Positions 5,762 through 39,052 of a DNA stretch of 64,000 nt are shown piece by piece. The first letter of the stretch is position 1. Each line of letters opens with the position of its first letter. Source of the DNA: Escherichia coli. GTDB taxonomy: Bacteria > Pseudomonadota > Gammaproteobacteria > Enterobacterales > Enterobacteriaceae. The notes beneath the pieces are model-generated. The model saw only the letters and a list, made by a program, of their open reading frames with translations, made no database searches and had not been told where the DNA came from. The translations under genes were made by a program, and so were the position numbers. The stretch is from the NCBI RefSeq assembly GCF_001677475.2, contig NZ_CP015229.1. The stretch is one strand, 5' to 3'.

Positions 5762-7018
5762 ATGCTCCATCCGCGAGCCAGAACCATGTTGTTATTATCG
5801 CTCCCCGCCGTGGCAATTGGGATTGCGTCCAGTCTTATTCTGATTGTGGTGATGAAAATCGCCTCGGTATTACAGAATTTGCTCTGGCAACGACTGCCGG
5901 GAACTCTGGGGATAGCCCAGGATTCACCTTTCTGGATCATCGCCATATTAACGCTAACAGGTATTGCGGTGGGGTTGGTTATCCGTTTCAGCCAGGGGCA
6001 TGCTGGACCAGACCCCGCCTGTGAACCGCTGATCGGCGCACCGGTTCCGCCCTCTGCGCTACCAGGACTTATCGTAGCATTAATTCTCGGTCTTGCTGGC
6101 GGCGTCAGCCTGGGGCCGGAACATCCGATCATGACCGTCAATATCGCCCTTGCCGTCGCCATTGGCGCTCGTCTGTTACCGCGCGTCAACCGAATGGAGT
6201 GGACTATTTTAGCCTCTGCCGGAACCATCGGCGCGCTGTTTGGCACACCTGTTGCGGCGGCGTTGATATTTTCGCAAACCTTAAATGGCAGTAATGAAGT
6301 GCCGCTATGGGATCGACTCTTTGCGCCGTTAATGGCAGCGGCGGCTGGTGCGCTGACGACAAGTCTATTTTTCCACCCCCATTTTTCGCTGCCCATTGCG
6401 CATTACGGACAGATGCAGATGGCAGACATTATCAGCGGTGCGATTGTAGCGGCGATTGCCATCGCTGCGGGGATGGTCGCCGTATGGTGTCTGCCACGGT
6501 TGCACGCAATGATGCATCAGATTAAAAACCCTGTGCTTATGCTCGGGGTTGGCGGGTTTATTCTCGGTATTTTGGGGGTTATTGGTGGGCCGGTTTCACT
6601 GTTTAAAGGGCTGGATGAGATGCAGCAAATGGTGATGAATCAGGCTTTCAGCACCAGTGATTACTTTTTACTGGCGGTGATTAAGCTCGCCGCTCTGGTC
6701 ATTGCCGCCGCCAGCGGGTTTCGTGGCGGGCGAATCTTCCCGGCAGTGTTTGTTGGCGTGGCGTTAGGTTTGATGCTACATGAACACGTTCCCGCAGTCC
6801 CGGCGGCAATTACTGTCTCCTGCGCTATTCTCGGTATGGTACTGGTGGTAACGCGCGATGGCTGGTTAAGCCTGTTTATGGCGGCAGTCGTTGTACCTGA
6901 TACCAATCTGCTACCGCTACTTTGTATCGTTATGCTTCCGGCATGGCTATTGCTGGCTGGCAAACCGATGATGATTGTGAATCGCCCGAAGCAGCAACCA
7001 CCCCACGATAATCTTTAG
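5762..7018 (+). CDS. yfeO: ClC-family putative ion channel YfeO
   Basis: 418 aa polytopic membrane ORF; N-terminus [20 protein letters not shown]; AAGGA RBS. Confidence 0.9.
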
Positions 7019-7132
7019 CAAAAAATGCTCTCCATCATGATTTAAGAGTTATGGCGATGAAACGGGGCTTTACCTCCCCGTAATATTGCGTTAACAGGCC
7101 GCTGACGGCTTCGATCGTGAAGGAGAATATCA

Positions 7133-7459
7133 ATGTTCAGGTCACTGTTTCTGGCGGCCGCCCTGATGGCTTTTACCCCGCTTGCGGCAAACGCAGGTGA
7201 AATTACCCTACTGCCATCAATCAAATTACAAATTGGCGATCGCGATCATTACGGTAATTACTGGGACGGTGGTCATTGGCGCGACCGTGATTACTGGCAT
7301 CGTAATTACGAATGGCGTAAAAACCGCTGGTGGCGTCACGATAATGGCTACCACCGTGGCTGGGATAAGCGTAAAGCGTATGAGCGTGGCTATCGTGAAG
7401 GCTGGCGCGACCGTGATGATCATCGAGGGAAAGGCCGTGGACACGGACATCGTCATTAA
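7133..7459 (+). CDS. ypeC: Small secreted protein YpeC (DUF2502), W/R/H/D-rich
   Basis: 108 aa; signal peptide [21 protein letters not shown] followed by low-complexity [18 protein letters not shown]...GHGHRH; GGAG RBS. Confidence 0.85.
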
Positions 7460-7483
7460 ACACATCCACCAATGGAGCACGAT

Positions 7484-7575
<92 letters not shown>

Positions 7576-7600
7576 TGTGCCTGGTACGACGCCAGTTGAA

Positions 7601-8848
<1,248 letters not shown>

Positions 8849-12824: not shown

Positions 12825-12900
<76 letters not shown>

Positions 12901-13924: not shown

Positions 13925-15340
13925 TTACTGCTGATTTTCGCGTTCAGCAATAAAGGCCAGCGCTTTGTTGATACGCTCAATGCTACGTGTCTTACCGATC
14001 GCGTGAACGGTAACATCCAGTGCTGGAGACTGCCCCGCACCGGTTACGGCGACACGCAGCGGCATACCAACTTTACCCATACCCACTTCCAACTCATCCG
14101 CCGTCGCCTGAATAGCGTGATGAACGTTTTCAGCGGTCCAGTCAGTAATCGCGGCCAGTTTGTCACGAACCACTTCCAGCGGCTGACGCGCTACCGGACG
14201 CAGATGTTTTTTCGCGGCGTCGGCATCGAACTCTGCAAAATCTTCGTAGAAATAACGGCAGCTCTGTGCCATCTCTTTCAGCGTCTTGCAGCGTTCGCCC
14301 AGCAGTTTCACCAGATCAGCCAGCTGCGGGCCGTTACGGGTATCGATATTTTCCTGCTCAATGTGCCACTGTAAGTGAGTAGCAACATACTCCGGCGGCA
14401 GCGCGTTAATGTAGTGATGGTTCAGCCACAGCAACTTGTCGGTGTTGAACGCACTGGCAGATTTGCTGACGGCATTCAAAGTGAAGTATTTGATCATCTC
14501 TTCACGAGTGAAGATTTCCTGATCGCCGTGGGACCAGCCCAGACGCACCAGATAGTTCAGCAGTGCTTCTGGCAAATAACCGTCATCACGGTACTGCATT
14601 ACGCTGACCGCCCCGTGACGTTTGGACAGTTTTTTACCGTCATCGCCGTTGATCATAGAAACGTGCGCGTAAACCGGCACCGGCGCTTTCAGGGCTTTAA
14701 GAATGTTGATCTGGCGCGGCGTGTTGTTGATATGGTCTTCGCCACGGATAACATGGGTGATTTCCATATCCCAGTCATCAACAACCACACAGAAGTTATA
14801 GGTTGGGGAACCATCGGTACGGCGAATGATCAGATCATCCAGCTCCTGGTTGCTGAACTCAATCGGGCCACGGATCTGATCGTCAAAAACAACAGAACCT
14901 TCCTGCGGGTTAGCAAAACGTACAACGCACGGTTCATCATCAGCATGATGCTCATGGCTGTGGCGGCAGCGACCGTCATAACGCGGCTTCTCACCTTTCG
15001 CCATTTGTTCTTCGCGCAGCGCTTCCAGGCGCTCTTTAGAGCAATAGCATTTATAAGCAGTGCCCTCTTCCAGCATCTGATCGATCACCGCGTTGTAGCG
15101 ATCAAAACGTTTGGTCTGGAAGTACGGACCTTCATCCCACTCCAGGCTCAGCCAGTTCATGCCATCCATAATGGCTTCGATAGCTTCCGGCGTGGAACGC
15201 TCAAGATCGGTGTCTTCAATACGCAGCACGAACTCACCGCCGTGGTTACGTGCAAAAAGCCAGGAGTAAAGAGCAGTACGCGCGCCGCCAACGTGCAGAT
15301 AGCCTGTTGGGCTTGGCGCGAAGCGAGTTTTGATTTTCAT
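13925..15340 (-). CDS. gltX: Glutamyl-tRNA synthetase
   Basis: 471 aa; N-terminus [27 protein letters not shown] (HIGH motif), KLSKR (KMSKS-like) motif present. Confidence 0.97.
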
Positions 15341-15553: not shown

Positions 15554-15581
15554 TTGACTCATTTTGAACTCTCCCTATAAT
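15554..15581 (+). promoter_or_regulatory. Sigma70 promoter of the Val-Val-Lys tRNA operon
   Basis: TTGACT (15554-15559), 16-nt spacer, TATAAT (15576-15581), GC-rich discriminator GCGACTCC, AT-rich upstream region. Confidence 0.7.
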
Positions 15582-15598
15582 GCGACTCCACACAGCGG

Positions 15599-15674
15599 GG
15601 GTGATTAGCTCAGCTGGGAGAGCACCTCCCTTACAAGGAGGGGGTCGGCGGTTCGATCCCGTCATCACCCACCA
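15599..15674 (+). tRNA. valU: tRNA-Val (UAC)
   Basis: GGGTGATTAGCTCAGCTGGGAGAGCACCTCCCTTACAAGGAGGGGGTCGGCGGTTCGATCCCGTCATCACCCACCA, 76 nt. Confidence 0.95.
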
Positions 15675-15718
15675 ACTACTTTATGTAGTCTCCGCCGTGT
15701 AGCAAGAAATTGAGAAGT

Positions 15719-15794
15719 GGGTGATTAGCTCAGCTGGGAGAGCACCTCCCTTACAAGGAGGGGGTCGGCGGTTCGATCCCGTCATCACCCACCA
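15719..15794 (+). tRNA. valX: tRNA-Val (UAC), second identical copy
   Basis: Identical 76-nt sequence to the first Val tRNA after a 44-nt spacer. Confidence 0.95.
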
Positions 15795-15798
15795 CTTC

Positions 15799-15874
15799 GG
15801 GTCGTTAGCTCAGTTGGTAGAGCAGTTGACTTTTAATCAATTGGTCGCAGGTTCGAATCCTGCACGACCCACCA
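15799..15874 (+). tRNA. lysV: tRNA-Lys (UUU)
   Basis: GGGTCGTTAGCTCAGTTGGTAGAGCAGTTGACTTTTAATCAATTGGTCGCAGGTTCGAATCCTGCACGACCCACCA, 4 nt after the second Val tRNA. Confidence 0.95.
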
Positions 15875-15878
15875 ATGT

Positions 15879-15907
15879 AAAAAAGCGCCCTAAAGGCGCT
15901 TTTTTGC
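15879..15907 (+). terminator. Intrinsic terminator of the tRNA operon
   Basis: AAAAAAGCGCCCTAAAGGCGCTTTTTTGC hairpin plus T-run. Confidence 0.85.
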
Positions 15908-15982
15908 TATCTGCGATTTGCGAAATTGCCTGATGCGCTTCACTTAGCAGACTACTATTTCCGGCAATTCCTGTCTCCTCAC

Positions 15983-16867
15983 CTACTGTGTCAATGCAGC
16001 CAACAGCTTAACCATCGCGGGCGTCACCTGCTGTGTTTCATAAACAATATATAAATCTGCAGGGATGCGCTGTTTGAGCGGACGGAAAATGACACCTGGC
16101 CAGTTCATTTGTGCGTAGCTGTCCGCTATCAATGTGATACCAATGCCCATACTGACCATGGCGAGTACCGTTTGCGGTTCATTAACTTCGCGAATAACAA
16201 CCGGTGAAAATCCCACCTGCTGGCAAACTCGCTGCAAAAAATCCCAGTCAGTGTACACGGGCGGCATTGTAACAAAATACTCGTCACGTAGCGCTTCCAG
16301 CGGGACGGTGGAAAATGATGAGAAATGATGCTCTTCAGGCATCGCCACCAGAAACGCCGATTCATGCAACCGTAAGCTGGTAAAACCTGCAGGTGGTTCT
16401 GTTGCCATTCGCCAGATACCGGCATCGAGTTCACGTCGTTCCAGCAGGGTCATTTGCATCGCGGGCATCTTTTCGCGAAAAAGAACGTCAACGTTAGGAT
16501 TTTCCCTGAGGAATCGCCGCATAACCGGGCGCATCCGTCCCCACATTGCCGTTCCCACTACGCCGAGTTCAATCCGCCCTGCTTCTCCCCGACCTATTTG
16601 TTCAACCCGAGCCAATACATTATTAGCATTCACCAGCAATCGACGCGATTCTTCCATCAAGATTTTGCCCGCGTGTGTCAGTACGACGCTGCGCGAATGG
16701 CGAATAAAAAGCTGCGTGCCGAGTTGATTTTCCAGCTCTTTAATATGAATACTGAGCGGAGGCTGAGACATATTTAAACGCGCTGCTGCGCGACCAAAAT
16801 GCAACTCTTCCGCTACGGCAAGAAAATAACGGAGCAACTTAAGATCTGTTCTGTATACGCGTTCCAT
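15983..16867 (-). CDS. xapR: LysR-family activator of xanthosine catabolism XapR
   Basis: ORF track 299 aa; start chosen at MERVYRTDLKLLRYFLAVAEELHFGRAAARLNMSQPPLS (294 aa), LysR HTH. Confidence 0.9.
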   Translation of the reverse strand: MERVYRTDLKLLRYFLAVAEELHFGRAAARLNMSQPPLSIHIKELENQLGTQLFIRHSRSVVLTHAGKILMEESRRLLVNANNVLARVEQIGRGEAGRIELGVVGTAMWGRMRPVMRRFLRENPNVDVLFREKMPAMQMTLLERRELDAGIWRMATEPPAGFTSLRLHESAFLVAMPEEHHFSSFSTVPLEALRDEYFVTMPPVYTDWDFLQRVCQQVGFSPVVIREVNEPQTVLAMVSMGIGITLIADSYAQMNWPGVIFRPLKQRIPADLYIVYETQQVTPAMVKLLAALTQ

Positions 16868-31652: not shown

Positions 31653-32112
<460 letters not shown>

Positions 32113-32114
32113 TC

Positions 32115-33026
32115 TTAAATCCCTGCCCCCTGGCTAAAATGCTCTTCCCCAAACACCCCGGTAGAAAGGTAGCGATCGCCGCGATCGCAGATGATCGCGA
32201 CCACCACCGCGCCGGGGTTAGCTTTTGCCACGCGCAGTGCTCCGGCAACCGCGCCGCCAGAGCTGACGCCACAGAATATTCCTTCCCGCACTGCCAGTTC
32301 GCGCATGGTGTTTTCTGCATCGCGCTGATGAATATCCAGCACCTCATCCACCAGCGAAGCGTTGAAAATCCCCGGCAGATATTCCGCAGGCCAGCGGCGA
32401 ATGCCGGGAATGCTACTGCCCTCTTCCGGCTGCAGGCCAACAATGGTCACCGGTTTGGATTGTTCGCGCATAAAGCGTGAAACGCCGGTGATAGTGCCGG
32501 TTGTTCCCATGCTGGAGACAAAATGGGTAATGCGCCCGCCAGTTTGCTGCCAGATTTCCGGCCCGGTGGTAGTATAATGGGCGTAGGGATTATCAGGATT
32601 ATTGAACTGATCGAGCAGCTTTCCTTCACCACGATTCGCCATTTCAAGCGCCAGATCGCGCGCACCTTCCATGCCCTGCTCTTTGGTGACAAGAATCAGT
32701 TCCGCACCATAAGCACGCATCGCCGCACGGCGTTCCTGGCTCATGTTGTCGGGCATCAGCAATTTCATGCGATAGCCTTTAAGCGCGGCAATCATTGCCA
32801 GCGCAATGCCGGTGTTACCACTGGTGGCTTCGATCAGCACGTCACCCGGTTTAATTTCCCCGCGCTTTTCCGCCTCGACGATCATCGAAAGTGCCGCACG
32901 ATCTTTTACCGAACCTGCCGGGTTATTGCCTTCCAGTTTCAACCAGACTTCACTGCCGTTATTCGGCCCCATTCGCTGCAACTTCACCAGAGGCGTATTG
33001 CCAATTGTTTGTTCTAATGTACTCAC
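32115..33026 (-). CDS. cysM: Cysteine synthase B (O-acetylserine sulfhydrylase B)
   Basis: ORF track shows a 329 aa open frame; the start is taken as GTG at 33026 (STLEQTIGNTPLVKLQRMGP...), giving 303 aa; PLP motif SVKDRAA. Confidence 0.92.
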   Translation of the reverse strand: MSTLEQTIGNTPLVKLQRMGPNNGSEVWLKLEGNNPAGSVKDRAALSMIVEAEKRGEIKPGDVLIEATSGNTGIALAMIAALKGYRMKLLMPDNMSQERRAAMRAYGAELILVTKEQGMEGARDLALEMANRGEGKLLDQFNNPDNPYAHYTTTGPEIWQQTGGRITHFVSSMGTTGTITGVSRFMREQSKPVTIVGLQPEEGSSIPGIRRWPAEYLPGIFNASLVDEVLDIHQRDAENTMRELAVREGIFCGVSSGGAVAGALRVAKANPGAVVVAIICDRGDRYLSTGVFGEEHFSQGAGI

Positions 33027-33049
33027 GATCTCTATCCATACGTGGTGTT

Positions 33050-33086
33050 GCCTGATGCGACGCTTGCGCGTCTTATCAGGCCTACA
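33050..33086. repeat. REP element between cysA and cysM
   Basis: GCCTGATGCGACGCTTGCGCGTCTTATCAGGCCTACA, canonical REP, inside the cysPUWAM transcription unit. Confidence 0.8.
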
Positions 33087-33159
33087 GGTTACAAACCTTG
33101 CCATTAAAAAGCCCGGATCGCGGGAAGCGCCTCCGGGCGTTTAACATTCACTCAACCTA

Positions 33160-34257
33160 TCAGGCGCTTTGTGCGAGAGCAAGTTCCTCATCGCGGGTTT
33201 CAATACGCTCGTCGCCGTTATACAGCCGCGCATGTTGCAGACCAACGAATAAACGCTCGCCACGTTGCGGGGCGTCGTCGCCGTGCATCACGACCGTCAG
33301 CGCTTCGTTGTACCACCCCAGCGGCTGCACGACTAATTGGGTGTAGTGGCCTTTCGGGCTGGCTTCCAGTACCTGTACCGGCAGCGGCGAATCGAGGCTG
33401 GTACGGCGGCTGATATCCACTTCCCACGGACGCAGGAAGAGATCCACCGGCCCCTGATACGCAGGTGTATAGCCCAGCGGCCAGCGATGTGCGCCAACAT
33501 GGAACTGCCCGCCGCGAATGGTTCCCTGCAGGCGGTTCACTTCGCCCATAAATTCGAGTACAAAACGGGTCGCTGGTTCGCGCCATACCTGGTCCGGTGC
33601 ATCAGCCTGCTCGATATTGCCCTGGCTCATCACCACTACACGATCGGCTACTTCGGTCGCTTCTTCCTGGTCATGGGTCACAAACACGCTGGTGAATTTC
33701 AGCTCTTCATGTAACTGACGCAGCCAGCGACGCAGCTCTTTACGCACCTGCGCATCCAGCGCGCCAAACGGTTCATCAAGCAGCAGAATTTGCGGTTCTA
33801 CAGCCAGCGCGCGCGCCAGCGCTACACGCTGTTTCTGGCCGCCGGAAAGCTGCGCCGGATAACGATCCGCCAGATGGGCAAGCTGCACCATCTCCAGCAA
33901 TTTTGTCACTTTCGCTTTGATCGCCGCGGCATTCGGGCGCTCGCGACGCGGCAGCACCGTCAGGCCAAAAGCGATATTGTCGAACACCGTCATATGACGG
34001 AATAGCGCGTAATGCTGGAACACGAAACCGACTTTACGGTCCCTCGCGTGCAGACGGCTGACATCGGTACCGTGAAAGCGAATTTGTCCGCTGGTTTGAT
34101 GCTCCAGCCCGGCAATAATGCGCAGCAGCGTGGTTTTCCCGGAACCGGACGGCCCCAGCAACGCGACCATCTGACCAGAAGGAATATCCAGTGAGATATC
34201 GTTCAGCACCTGGGTGCGACCAAACGACTTCTTAATATTGGCAATCTCAATGCTCAT
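33160..34257 (-). CDS. cysA: Sulfate/thiosulfate ABC transporter ATP-binding protein
   Basis: 365 aa; Walker [10 protein letters not shown], signature [15 protein letters not shown]. Confidence 0.97.
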
Positions 34258-35122
34258 GATGCTCCTCCTGCTGCGCGCGTTTTTCCTGATTCTCCAGGCG
34301 CCACTGCAACATACTCTTTAAAAACAAGGTGATAATCGCCATCAGCGTCAACAGCGCGGCGGCGGTAAAGGAGCCGACGGTGTTGTAGTCCTGCTCCAGC
34401 AATTCAATCTGTAACGGCAGCGACAGGGTTTCACCGCGAATCGAGCCGGAAACCACCGATACCGCGCCAAACTCGCCAATCGCGCGGGCGTTGGTCAGCA
34501 CCACGCCGTAAAGCAGCGCCCAGCGAATATTCGGTAATGTGACGCGACGGAACATCTGCCAGCCGGACGCGCCAAGCAAAATCGCCGCTTCGTCCTCCTG
34601 GCTGCCCTGGCTTAACATCACCGGCACCAGCTCGCGCACCACAAATGGACACGTCACGAAGATGGTGACCAGCACCATTCCCGGCCACGAGAACATAATT
34701 TGCAGGTTATGCTCGTCGAGCCAACCGCCCAGCGGGCCATTAGAGCCGTAGAACAGCAGATACACCAGACCGGCAACCACCGGCGATACGGCAAACGGAA
34801 TGTCCAGTAGCGTCAGCAGTAACTGGCGTCCAGGGAAGTTAAAGCGCGTCACCAGCCAGGCCAGCAGAATGCCGAACACCAGGTTCACCGGCACGGCAAT
34901 CAGCGCAATCATCACCGTCAGCCAGATGGCGTGCAGCATGTCCGGGTCAGCCAGATTCTGTATAACTGGCATCAGCCCTTTGCTGAACGCCTGTATGAAG
35001 ATATAAATCATCGGCACCAGCAGGATGAACGCCGATACCAGCATCCCGATGCCAATCAGAAACCATTTGCCCCAGTTAATCGGGCGCGCGTCATAACGCT
35101 TCAATTGTGTCACTTCCGCCAT
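34247..35122 (-). CDS. cysW: Sulfate/thiosulfate ABC transporter permease CysW
   Basis: 291 aa membrane ORF; 11-nt overlap with cysA. Confidence 0.95.
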
Positions 35123-35955
35123 TAATGACCTACCACACGCCGACCAAAGCGACTTTGCAGAGTGTTAATTGAGAACAGCAGCATCAGGGATGCCGCGAGG
35201 ATCACCGAAGCAATCGCGCTCGCCGCCGGGTAATCAAACTCCTGCAAGCGCACAAAAATCATCAGCGACGTAACTTCCGTCTTCCAGGCGATGTTCCCGG
35301 CGATAAATATCACCGCGCCAAACTCACCAAGACTACGGGTAAACGACAGCGCAATACCGGCAATCAGCGCCGGAGAGAGTTCTGGCAGCACCACTTTGCA
35401 GAAGCTCTGCCAGCGCGTTGCACCGAGCGTTTCTGCCGCTTCTTCATATTCCGGCCCTAACTCTTCCAGCACCGGCTGCACGGTACGCACTACAAACGGA
35501 ATGCTGGTAAAGGCCATCGCCACCGCAATCCCCAGCCAGGTATAGGTGACTTTGATATCAAACTTCGCCAGCCATTCACCGTAAAAACCGTTCACGGAAA
35601 AGAGCGAGGCCAGCGTTAAACCGGCCACTGCCGTTGGCAGCGCAAAGGGTAAATCCATCAGCGCATCAAGCAGCGTGCGGCCAGGGAAGCGATAACGGGT
35701 TAAGATCCACGCCATCAGCAGGCCGAAAACACCGTTAAAAATCGACGCGACAAACGCCGACAGCAGCGTCACTTTATAGGCCGCGACCACCTGCGGATTG
35801 GTGATCACCTCCCAGTACTGCGCCCAGCTCATCTCAGAAAGCTGCATCACCAGCGCGGAGAGCGGCAGTAACAAAATCAGGCACACAAACAGCAGACTGG
35901 TGCCGAGGCTCAGGGTAAAGCCCGGCAACACGCGTCGTGAAGAAACTGCAAACAT
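35122..35955 (-). CDS. cysU: Sulfate/thiosulfate ABC transporter permease CysU (CysT)
   Basis: 277 aa membrane ORF; start/stop overlap with neighbours. Confidence 0.95.
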   Translation of the reverse strand: MFAVSSRRVLPGFTLSLGTSLLFVCLILLLPLSALVMQLSEMSWAQYWEVITNPQVVAAYKVTLLSAFVASIFNGVFGLLMAWILTRYRFPGRTLLDALMDLPFALPTAVAGLTLASLFSVNGFYGEWLAKFDIKVTYTWLGIAVAMAFTSIPFVVRTVQPVLEELGPEYEEAAETLGATRWQSFCKVVLPELSPALIAGIALSFTRSLGEFGAVIFIAGNIAWKTEVTSLMIFVRLQEFDYPAASAIASVILAASLMLLFSINTLQSRFGRRVVGH

Positions 35956-36971
35956 TACTTACGCCCCGCCGCTAACAGCTTGTCTAACTCGCCGCCGCTG
36001 GTGAAGTGGGTTTTCATCACTTCCGGCCAGGAGCCAAATTTGTCTTCCACGCGGAACAGATCGGTCTGCGGGAATTTGTCTTTCAGTTTGTCCATGACTT
36101 CCGGGTTATTTACGCGGTAGTAATAGTCGGTGATGATGGTTTGCGCCTGCGGGCTGTAGAGCCAGTTCAGGTAGGCTTTTGCTGCTTTTTCCGTACCGTT
36201 GGCCTGCACGTTTTTATCGACCCACGCCACCGGGAATTCCGCCAGAATGTTGGTTTTCGGAATCACCACTTCAAAGCCCTGCGCTTCATACTGTTTACGG
36301 ATGTTGTTCACTTCCGACTCGAAGCTGATCAGCACATCGCCCAGGCCGCGCTCGGCAAAAGTGGTGGTCGCGCCACGACCGCCGGTATCGAACACTTCAA
36401 CGTTTTTCAGGAACTGGGTCATAAACTGTTCGGTTTTGGCTTTATCGCCACCGTCAGCTTGATCCGCTACGCCCCATGCCGCCAGATAGGTATAACGCGC
36501 GTTACCCGACGTTTTCGGGTTCGGGAAAATCAGCTTCACGTCGGAGCGCACCAGGTCGTTCCAGTCGTGGATATTCTTCGGGTTGCCCTTACGCACCAGG
36601 AAGCCCATGGTGGAGTAGAACGGCGAGCTATTATTCGGCAGGCGCGACTGCCAGTCTGCCGGGATCAGCTTGCCTTTGTCATGCAGGATCTGTACGTCAG
36701 TCACCTGGTTATAAGTGACAACGTCGGCTTTTAAGCCCTGCAAAATTGCCAGCGCCTGTTTTGATGACCCGGCATGAGATTGTTTTATCGTCAGTTTGTC
36801 GCCGCCGTTATCTTTTGCCCACTGCTGTTCAAACGGGATATTCAGGGCGGCAAACAGCTCGCGGGAGACGTCATAAGAACTGTTCAGCAGTTCCGTTGCC
36901 TGTACATGGCCCGCCAGCAGCAGAGAAGCGACCAGCGCGAGTGAGTTCTTTTTCAGTAAGTTAACGGCCAT
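35955..36971 (-). CDS. cysP: Periplasmic thiosulfate-binding protein
   Basis: 338 aa; signal peptide [25 protein letters not shown]. Confidence 0.95.
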
Positions 36972-37274
36972 TGCGCACCCTTATAAATTTAATGACTTTC
37001 TAATAGTCATCATATTTATAACGGACGTGAAAGGAGTAACGGTTTTATATACCGTTTGGTGATTTGGAAGTTGAAAAGGGAATAAGAACTTGGTTCAACA
37101 GGCGTAATTGTTGCAGTCAGTTTGGACACGGACAGCGCGGAGAAACCGGAGCGTACACATAGTACGTGAGGATTTCGAGCACTGCCCGGGGCAAAAATGA
37201 CAAATAAAATAGCCTGGTGAACTTAGTTCAAGACGAAATCCTCCCCACACATGCAGGGAGGAAACAGAGGTGAA

Positions 37275-38066
37275 TCAGATGCCGACGCTAACCGTCTCCG
37301 GCAGTGTGCTGCCGCCATCAATCACATTCTGTGTACCGGTTAAATAACTTGATTCATCCGATGCGAGGAAGGCTGCCAGTTCGCCGACTTCCAGCGGATC
37401 GGCGAGGCGACGCATCGGGATTGCTTTTGCCATTTCAGTCAGCACCGATTCTGGATCTTCCGGGTTCGACTGGCGGGCAATGCTTTCCGCCATTGGCGTG
37501 CGAACGTATCCCGGGCAGATGGCGTTAACGCGAATACCAGACTGCGCGTACTCCACCGCCAGCGATTTAGTCAGGCCAACAATCGCCGCTTTCGTTAAGG
37601 CGTACGCCGTTTCACCCGGATCGGCCACCATATCGCCAGTGACCGAAGACATCATCACAATGCGACCATCTTTGCGGGCAATCATCTCCGGCAGCACCGC
37701 CTTCGTGACGTTCCATACGCCTTTAATATTGATATCAATATGGAAATCGCGATCTTCATCGCTCATATCGAGGAAACTGCCCAGACGACAAACGCCTGCG
37801 TTATTCACCAGGATATCAATGCGCCCTTCTTTTTCCTTCGCGCGCTTGATAGCTGCGGCTACCGACGCCGGGTCACGCACATCGGCGACAACCGCCGTAC
37901 AGCGATGACCACGACCACACAGTTCGTCCGCCAGTTTTTCGATCTCAGGGGAGATATCCAGCAAGATTAGGTTTGCGCCATGACGCGCAAAAGTTCTGGC
38001 AATTCCTTCGCCAATTCCCTGCAATGCGCCCGTAATCAGTGCTGTCTTGCCCGTGAGTTTACCCAT
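37275..38066 (-). CDS. ucpA: Short-chain dehydrogenase/reductase UcpA
   Basis: ORF track 285 aa; AAGGAGA RBS supports start at MGKLTGKTALITGALQGIGEGIA (263 aa), classical SDR TGxxxGIG and YxxxK motifs. Confidence 0.92.
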   Translation of the reverse strand: MGKLTGKTALITGALQGIGEGIARTFARHGANLILLDISPEIEKLADELCGRGHRCTAVVADVRDPASVAAAIKRAKEKEGRIDILVNNAGVCRLGSFLDMSDEDRDFHIDINIKGVWNVTKAVLPEMIARKDGRIVMMSSVTGDMVADPGETAYALTKAAIVGLTKSLAVEYAQSGIRVNAICPGYVRTPMAESIARQSNPEDPESVLTEMAKAIPMRRLADPLEVGELAAFLASDESSYLTGTQNVIDGGSTLPETVSVGI

Positions 38067-38194
38067 TTTAATGCTCTCCTTGTTAATACAGAGCGTTACA
38101 CTCCATTCCCTCTGAAAATACAGGATAAACAAAATATTGCTGCGGATCAGCTCACTAATTCAGGAAAATCTCAATTCAGTCGCTGCTTTATGCA

Positions 38195-39052
38195 TCATTT
38201 CAGGCGTTGCGTTAGCTCACTGCTGCGCTCAATCATTTTCAATGACTCCACATCATTGAGTTGCACAAGGCCAACAAACAGTAAATCGGTAACAGAATTT
38301 TGCGCCGTGCGGGTGGACATCGACGAGCTGCGCCATTCGGTTTCGCCAGAAACGGTATCGAGGGTGAAATGCGCCAGCCGCCGCAGCGGGGAATCGGTTA
38401 ACGAGGTAATGGCAATCACCGTTGCCCCCTGCTTTCGCGCTGCCTCGGCGCACAGCACAATCTCTTTTTTACTGCCGCTGTAAGAGATAGCGATTTGTAC
38501 ATCGCCTTTTTTTAGCGCCTGGGAAACGGTGGCTTGTACATGTGTGTCGGCTTCGCAGGCCACGCGATAGCCAATTTTCATCAGTTTGAATGAAAGATCG
38601 CGCCCCACCAGCGCCGACCCGCCCAGGCCCGTTATCTGGATAAACGGTGCTTTACTGATGACCTCAATGATTTTTTGCAGCCGCGCGTAGTCGAACAACG
38701 CGCAGGTTTGCTCCAGCGCCAGTTCTTTTTCGCGATTCAGTTTGCGGGCAATCACTTCCAGCGAATCATCACTGGTAATCGAACTGTGCAGGTGCAGCGC
38801 CGTGGCATTCGTTTTCTCCCGGCTGGCACTGTATTCGCCAATTAACGCCATACGCAATTCAGTAAATCCTTGCGCGCCGAGCTTCTGGGCAAACTTCACA
38901 ATACTCGACTGACTGATGCCGAGCTGTTTCGCCATCTTGCGCGAAGAAACGGATTTCAGCTCACTCACGTTGTCCTGCAGAAAGTCAGCAATTTTTTGCT
39001 CGTTCTCGGTAAATTCACTTTCCGCATTGCGTATTTTCGTCAGGTACAACAT
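38195..39052 (-). CDS. murR: RpiR/SIS-family repressor MurR
   Basis: ORF track 370 aa; start chosen at [24 protein letters not shown] (285 aa), HTH plus SIS domain; divergent from murQ. Confidence 0.9.

Follow-up and report, generated by a model that had tools for sequence, protein, structure and literature searches.

The closest described system to the array treated here is the valU operon of Escherichia coli K-12. In the annotation of strain MG1655 (b2401-b2404), this operon reads valU, 44 nt, valX, 46 nt, valY, 4 nt (CTTC) and lysV, that is, three tRNA-Val genes ahead of one tRNA-Lys gene. Changes in the number of identical tandem tRNA genes also have an older precedent in E. coli, since Russell et al. 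reportedly described in 1970 how the su3 doublet at the tandem tRNA-Tyr genes tyrT-tyrV segregates to a singlet by unequal recombination. The tRNA genes of E. coli and Shigella genomes are likewise said to have been compared by Withers et al. in 2006. The tyrT-tyrV pair resembles the valU array in that identical tandem tRNA genes lie a short spacer apart, a unit can be lost or gained by exchange, and RtT-type repeats vary downstream. It differs in operon and amino acid, and in that its event was shown genetically, whereas the one proposed here for valU is drawn from comparison of sequences.

More recently, tRNA gene dosage in Pseudomonas fluorescens SBW25 has been found to shift by recombination-driven duplication and loss, which is both frequent and reversible (PMC10954465, PMC7661048). 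Those duplications cover tens of kb to Mb and were selected after the deletion of a tRNA gene, unlike the change in the valU array, which involves a single 122-bp period of a natural tandem array and bears no sign of selection. As for expression, the K-12 valU operon has a CUUC spacer between Val and Lys and a Rho-independent terminator that ends the transcript (PMC4176162). From its precursor of about 438 nt, RNase P trims off the terminator first and then frees the pre-tRNAs singly from the 3' end, in the 3'-to-5' direction (PMC4176162).

The valU locus of the window

What we call the window is the whole stretch of E. coli DNA under analysis, 64,000 nt long. Its tRNA genes were called with ARAGORN, with the Rfam tRNA model (gathering score 29) as a second test. 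ARAGORN reports four tRNA genes in the whole window, three of which form a Val-Val-Lys array. The array and its surroundings comprise the following features, in order of position:

13925-15340, minus strand: gltX (glutamate-tRNA ligase), left flank, divergent; from the ORF list and the annotations of homologous regions, 99.6% amino-acid identity to MG1655 GltX
15554-15581, plus strand: predicted promoter of the valU operon, TTGACT-16 nt-TATAAT; promoter scan, 11 of 12 consensus matches
15599-15674, plus strand: tRNA-Val(UAC) copy 1, equivalent of valU; ARAGORN, Rfam 65.9 bits, identical to MG1655 valU
15675-15718, plus strand: spacer 1, 44 nt, equal to the valU-valX spacer of MG1655 (identity 1.00, against 0.54 to spacer 2)
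15719-15794, plus strand: tRNA-Val(UAC) copy 2; ARAGORN, Rfam 65.9 bits, identical to copy 1
15795-15798, plus strand: CTTC spacer, 4 nt, as at the valY-lysV junction; read directly from the sequence
15799-15874, plus strand: tRNA-Lys(UUU), equivalent of lysV; ARAGORN, Rfam 79.2 bits, identical to MG1655 lysV
15877-15907, plus strand: predicted Rho-independent terminator, hairpin AAAAAAGCGCC-CUAAA-GGCGCUUUUUU and then a U-run; RNA fold of -19.1 kcal/mol, z = -6.6
15983-16867, minus strand: xapR, right flank, convergent; from the ORF list and the annotations of homologous regions

The start of xapR was set by homology to the annotated XapR of 294 aa, the mechanical ORF extending to 16882. The original prediction of two identical Val genes 44 nt apart, with the Lys gene 4 nt further on, was confirmed to the base by ARAGORN, Rfam and direct readout, and the Rfam E-values of the three genes (1e-13 to 1e-16) are far beyond chance. 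Both Val genes match each other, and each of valU, valX and valY of MG1655, at 76 of 76 positions (type 1). The 258-nt intergenic region between gltX and valU, which contains the promoter and the leader, has two differences from MG1655. A simple terminator scan had no plus-strand terminator after Lys in its output; folding gives a strong hairpin there.

Since the gltX-xapR position, tRNAs identical to those of K-12, the CTTC junction, and a promoter and terminator are all found here, the array is, judged by its sequence, the chromosomal valU operon. With only two Val genes and no spacer 2, it is an allelic copy-number variant of the operon rather than its reference form. This variant should still be fully functional: one sigma-70 promoter would give a polycistronic precursor that ends at the Rho-independent terminator, with a length of some 316 nt against the approximately 438 nt of K-12. 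Processing by RNase P from 3' to 5', as in K-12, is likely, since every sequence context relevant to processing is identical to that of K-12.

A deletion of 122 bp relative to MG1655

The original prediction placed valU, valX and valY ahead of lysV in MG1655, and the annotation agrees: the reference has three Val genes at this place, and not two. Aligned with MG1655, the window shows a single clean gap of 122 bp, free of filler, in an array that is otherwise identical. These missing 122 bp amount to one repeat period, the 46-nt spacer 2 plus one 76-nt Val gene. The alignment of the spacers that had been proposed as a check finds the 44-nt spacer kept at 100% identity and the 46-nt spacer absent. 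The two operons thus share the position between gltX and xapR, the Val and Lys sequences, spacer 1, the CTTC junction and the terminator, and they differ in that the window has two Val genes instead of three, lacking spacer 2 and one Val gene. A further difference lies downstream, where MG1655 carries a 156-bp RtT-like repeat 3' of lysV that is missing from the window.

The breakpoints fall inside a tract of 84 bp of perfect identity common to valX and valY, made up of GAAGT, the 76-nt tRNA and CTT. Because the spacer retained is spacer 1, which lies between valU and valX, the exchange can be assigned to the valX-valY pair. The window's second Val gene is accordingly a valX/valY recombinant, with the context of valX upstream and that of valY downstream. 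The recombining tracts being identical, the exact crossover point and the molecular pathway are not legible in the sequence.

Direction of the change

The array was placed in a wider context by a scan for the Val-NNNN-Lys junction in which each species was represented by a single genome. The scan yielded 71 loci, and the tally was limited to the 49 Enterobacteriaceae species representatives with a complete array next to gltX. Three Val genes followed by Lys are found in 40 of these 49, and two Val genes followed by Lys in six. Single representatives (1/49 each) have the order Val-Lys-Val-Lys, only one Val gene, or five Val genes, the last being Intestinirhabdus alba.

The two spacers are only 54% identical to each other. 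Across genera, by contrast with this value, they show an identity of 0.72-1.00 to their own type and of about 0.5 to the other type, and both are conserved in their own position in Salmonella, Citrobacter, Klebsiella, Kluyvera, Raoultella, Kosakonia, Mangrovibacter and other Escherichia species. Because three copies prevail among the representatives and both spacers are orthologous across genera, the three-Val array with both spacers is ancestral to the family and older than Escherichia, and the allele of the window is a derived deletion. It follows that the window has undergone a contraction, and not K-12 an expansion.

Two-copy arrays in other species retain either of the two spacers. Spacer 1 is kept in E. 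albertii, Shimwellia pseudoproteus, Pseudocitrobacter vendiensis and Kosakonia oryzendophytica, as well as in a genome titled Enterobacter pulveris, and spacer 2 in Kosakonia sacchari. In I. alba, the spacers of the five-Val array follow the order 1, 2, 1, 2. Given these two-copy species and the five copies of I. alba, both contraction and expansion have been recurrent across species. Franconibacter helveticus (locus L072, 6106-6503) has three Val genes with the spacers swapped, first one of the spacer 2 type and then one of the spacer 1 type; the arrays of F. helveticus and I. alba are the kind of product expected from successive unequal exchanges.

Alleles of the array within E. coli

The frequency of each allele among 5,426 complete E. 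coli genomes was determined with short queries diagnostic of the junctions, for which a coverage of 80% is reached by the collinear allele only and by neither of its partial pieces. These queries replaced the coverage of a 1.5-kb query, which was ambiguous since BLAST pieces were sometimes joined. The allele of the window (spacer 1-Val-CTTC-Lys) occurs in 213 of the 5,426 genomes (3.9%), and spacer 2 is present in 5,182. An alternative two-copy allele, in which the promoter-proximal Val gene is followed by spacer 2, was found in 133/5,426, and a one-copy allele, as in strain Xuzhou21, in 26/5,426. Four-copy alleles come in two forms: one with a spacer 2-Val-spacer 2 junction (up to 79/5,426) and one with a spacer 1-Val-spacer 1 junction (up to 70/5,426; IAI39, O55:H7 DEC5A and others), together up to about 150 of the 5,426. 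All four-copy counts are upper bounds, a few of the spacer 2-Val-spacer 2 matches being odd two-piece matches in assemblies of laboratory strains. Overall, about 90% of the genomes have three copies, 6.4% two, 0.5% one and fewer than 3% four, so that at least three copies are present in about 93%, in a set where some assemblies labelled complete may themselves carry repeat errors.

Two-piece matches also arose with the query for the alternative two-copy allele. Their reading as artefacts was dismissed, since a full-length match together with the next Val copy would account for the 250-bp span and the summed bit score, and the annotation of one such genome confirms the allele. This alternative allele (valU-spacer 2-Val-lysV) is also found in the K-12 laboratory derivatives JW5437-1, J53 and DOC14, which points either to deletions that arise within the time scale of laboratory work or to records with assembly errors.

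The window allele is hence a standing polymorphism of a known kind and is not unique to this genome. The same Val-44 nt-Val-CTTC-Lys arrangement, with spacer 1, is found in the annotated complete genomes of O103:H2 str. 12009, JP538, 19M19 and E2863, whose flanks differ from those of the window by about 1.3-1.4%. Unlike the window, 19M19 and E2863 have the RtT-like repeat, and JP538 is the only one of the four with a single tRNA-Ala(GGC) gene, as in the window. Over the flanks, the two-copy JP538 differs from the three-copy MG1655 at just 1 of 4,002 sites, and O103:H2 12009, 19M19 and the window lie 14-58 sites apart from one another and from MG1655 (about 4 kb of flanks). Several distinct flank haplotypes thus carry the allele, for which repeated, independent deletions are the simplest explanation, in a comparison that covers the flank haplotypes of a handful of genomes.

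Lineage of the window

The best identity to any complete E. coli genome is 97.9% over window positions 4000-28000 and 97.7% over 39001-64000, and it is mosaic along the window, ranging from 90.5% to 99.7% per 2 kb. Compared with JP538, the stretch at 6000-8000 (yfeO/ypeC/mntH) is 90.5% identical, against 98-99% in its surroundings, and that at 32000-39000 (cysM-cysP) about 95%, against 98-99% elsewhere; these divergent patches suggest mosaic recombination. Some 960 bp of JP538 between yfeK and cysM, with yfeS (a WGR-domain protein), are absent at window positions of about 32106-32110.

The XapB protein of the window is rare and led to two independent draft assemblies, GCA_033692955.1 and GCA_012665465.1, which match the window at 100% identity over 9,257 nt and likewise carry Val-Val-Lys. 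An exact-protein search with GltX was far less specific, with thousands of matching blocks, and the loci read among them had a DNA identity of only 95-98%. The window appears to belong to a deep-branching lineage of E. coli type with no complete genome among the 5,426, and the Val-Val-Lys allele is common to several of its members. In a further assembly of this lineage, GCA_033745465.1 (locus L086, 6502-9257), the xapR flank is followed by Lys, by an array like that of the lysT operon (Lys-Lys-Lys-Val-Lys-Val-Lys) and by cpoB-pal-tolB. This join would come either from recombination between the two Val/Lys operons, which have identical Lys genes and terminators, or from a chimeric short-read contig.

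Proposed unequal exchange and its alternatives

Our preferred reading, to which we give a probability of about 0.86, is that the window carries a valU operon with a derived two-Val allele, produced by the loss of one period through unequal exchange or slippage between valX and valY. An ancestral three-Val array would have lost a 122-bp period and become Val-spacer 1-Val-CTTC-Lys, through an unequal homologous exchange between valX and valY, which are identical, or through replication slippage between these two; the molecular pathway would be either RecA-dependent exchange or RecA-independent slippage. What speaks for such an origin is that the deletion comprises exactly one period, that its breakpoints lie within identical sequence, that the longer form is ancestral, and that reciprocal and alternative products exist. 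In the E. coli population, the reciprocal product (four copies) and the alternative ones (two copies from the other pair, and one copy) are all present. The proposal that unequal recombination between identical tandem copies had contracted the array is supported in this way, both by the exact loss of one period and by the three-copy state of the outgroups.

The short array could also be a product of assembly, if the source genome had three Val genes of which one unit was collapsed, together with one Ala gene and the RtT-like repeat. Indeed, the window has the shortest form of each of three tandem repeats that lie within 3 kb (Val, Ala(GGC) and RtT-like), as a collapse would give, the exactly matching relatives are draft whole-genome-shotgun assemblies, and the way in which a related draft contig (GCA_033745465.1) joins the two Val/Lys operons is suspicious. 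However, the missing spacer 2 is not itself repeated, and an assembler faced with repeats would usually break the contig there rather than drop unique sequence. The arrangement recurs in the 213 complete genomes, and the lineage assemblies that are 100% identical to the window, one of which stands for eight more places like it, share it on contigs that span the locus and measure 495-596 kb. Moreover, the state without the RtT-like repeat is common (about 44%), and the Val and Ala short alleles would be expected to coincide by chance in about 5 of 5,426 genomes, JP538 being one that has both. An assembly error is thus unlikely. That the deletion took place outside this lineage, which would have acquired an already existing two-copy allele through homologous recombination with another E. 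coli lineage, would agree with the mosaic nature of E. coli chromosomes and with the range of 90.5%-99.7% identity per 2 kb in the window, and a short conversion tract would leave no trace in an invariant array. Yet the flanks of the window are 52-58 of about 4,000 sites away from the other two-copy carriers examined, as far as from the three-copy MG1655, no donor haplotype is evident from the flank comparison, and the closest complete genome over the 1.5-kb locus reaches 99.2%. We consider such an import very improbable, and its ultimate origin would in any case be the same unequal exchange.

The opposite polarity, with two copies ancestral, the three copies of K-12 a derived expansion and nothing lost in the genome of the window, is extremely improbable. 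Expansions do exist at this locus, as in the four-copy alleles of E. coli and the five copies of I. alba, and the representative of the sister species E. albertii has two copies. Against these stand the 40 three-copy representatives out of 49, which are spread over many genera, and the share of about 93% of complete E. coli genomes with at least three copies. In addition, spacer 2, which is only 54% like spacer 1 and orthologous across genera, is of old origin rather than a recent copy of spacer 1.

tRNA dosage and significance

With two Val genes in the valU operon and a lysT operon of the standard kind on the GCA_033745465.1 contig of the same lineage (two Val and five Lys genes), the dosage of Val(UAC) in the genome of the window is probably four, against five. 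Of these two operons, only lysT proved essential in K-12; valUXY-lysV does not appear among the essential transcription units, and loss of this entire unit is tolerated (PMC11480407). A large phenotype from the loss of one of five Val(UAC) copies is therefore unlikely, and the effect on fitness would be near-neutral. A lineage-specific down-tuning of tRNA supply, as opposed to neutral drift, is quite unlikely. Were it true, a lineage about 2.2% away from every complete E. coli genome would have fixed the short forms of both Val(UAC) and Ala(GGC), and its tRNA gene dosage would be fitted to growth strategy or codon demand.

On its own, the feature has little significance, with only a slight phenotype to be expected: the operon is well studied, polymorphisms of this kind are already known, and the allele can be found annotated among the public complete genomes. 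It does provide a clean example of tandem tRNA arrays that are polymorphic in copy number within a species, with one to four Val copies at this locus and with both two-copy products and both four-copy reciprocal products occurring in E. coli. For codon-adaptation models, this means that the tRNA gene counts of K-12 are not to be assumed for other strains, and where assemblies differ in their number of tRNAs, the difference can be real and need not stem from faulty annotation. As a PCR marker, the 122-bp difference in size between gltX and xapR would be easy to use.

Other short repeats and minor elements near the array

Spacer 1 opens, right after valU, with a small hairpin, ACTAC-TTTAT-GTAGT (window 15675-15690), of which the stem is conserved across genera and the loop is variable (for example, CTACTTAGGTAG and CTACTTCGGTAG). 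Such a hairpin may be a conserved element with a part in processing or structure.

At the other end of the operon, the window has no 156-bp RtT-like repeat 3' of the lysV terminator (about position 15917), unlike MG1655. Within this repeat, the lysV 3' end and the terminator occur a second time, and many genome annotations label it 'RtT sRNA'. With 3,046 of the 5,426 complete genomes (56%) carrying it and about 44% lacking it, the repeat represents a common polymorphism, again with direct repeats at its bounds.

On the minus strand, at 12825-12900, the window has one tRNA-Ala(GGC) gene in place of the tandem alaX-alaW pair of MG1655, in which a 39-nt spacer separates the two genes. A collinear match to the single-copy allele was obtained in 132 of the 5,426 complete E. 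coli genomes (2.4%), and one locus (L080) has a three-copy Ala(GGC) array. K-12 has no Ala(GGC) genes besides alaW and alaX, and their double deletion leads to growth defects under some conditions (PMC11480407). For this reason, the contraction of Ala(GGC) may matter more than that of Val. The alaW slot varies in other genomes as well: in Escherichia sp. E1V33 (locus L047, 1415-1490) it is filled by a tRNA-Ala(UGC) gene, the Ala type of the rRNA operons, and in Citrobacter sp. NCU1 (locus L062, 10485-10560) by a chimeric gene with a body of the UGC type and a 3' end of the GGC type. These changes look like gene conversion between genes for tRNA-Ala isoacceptors.
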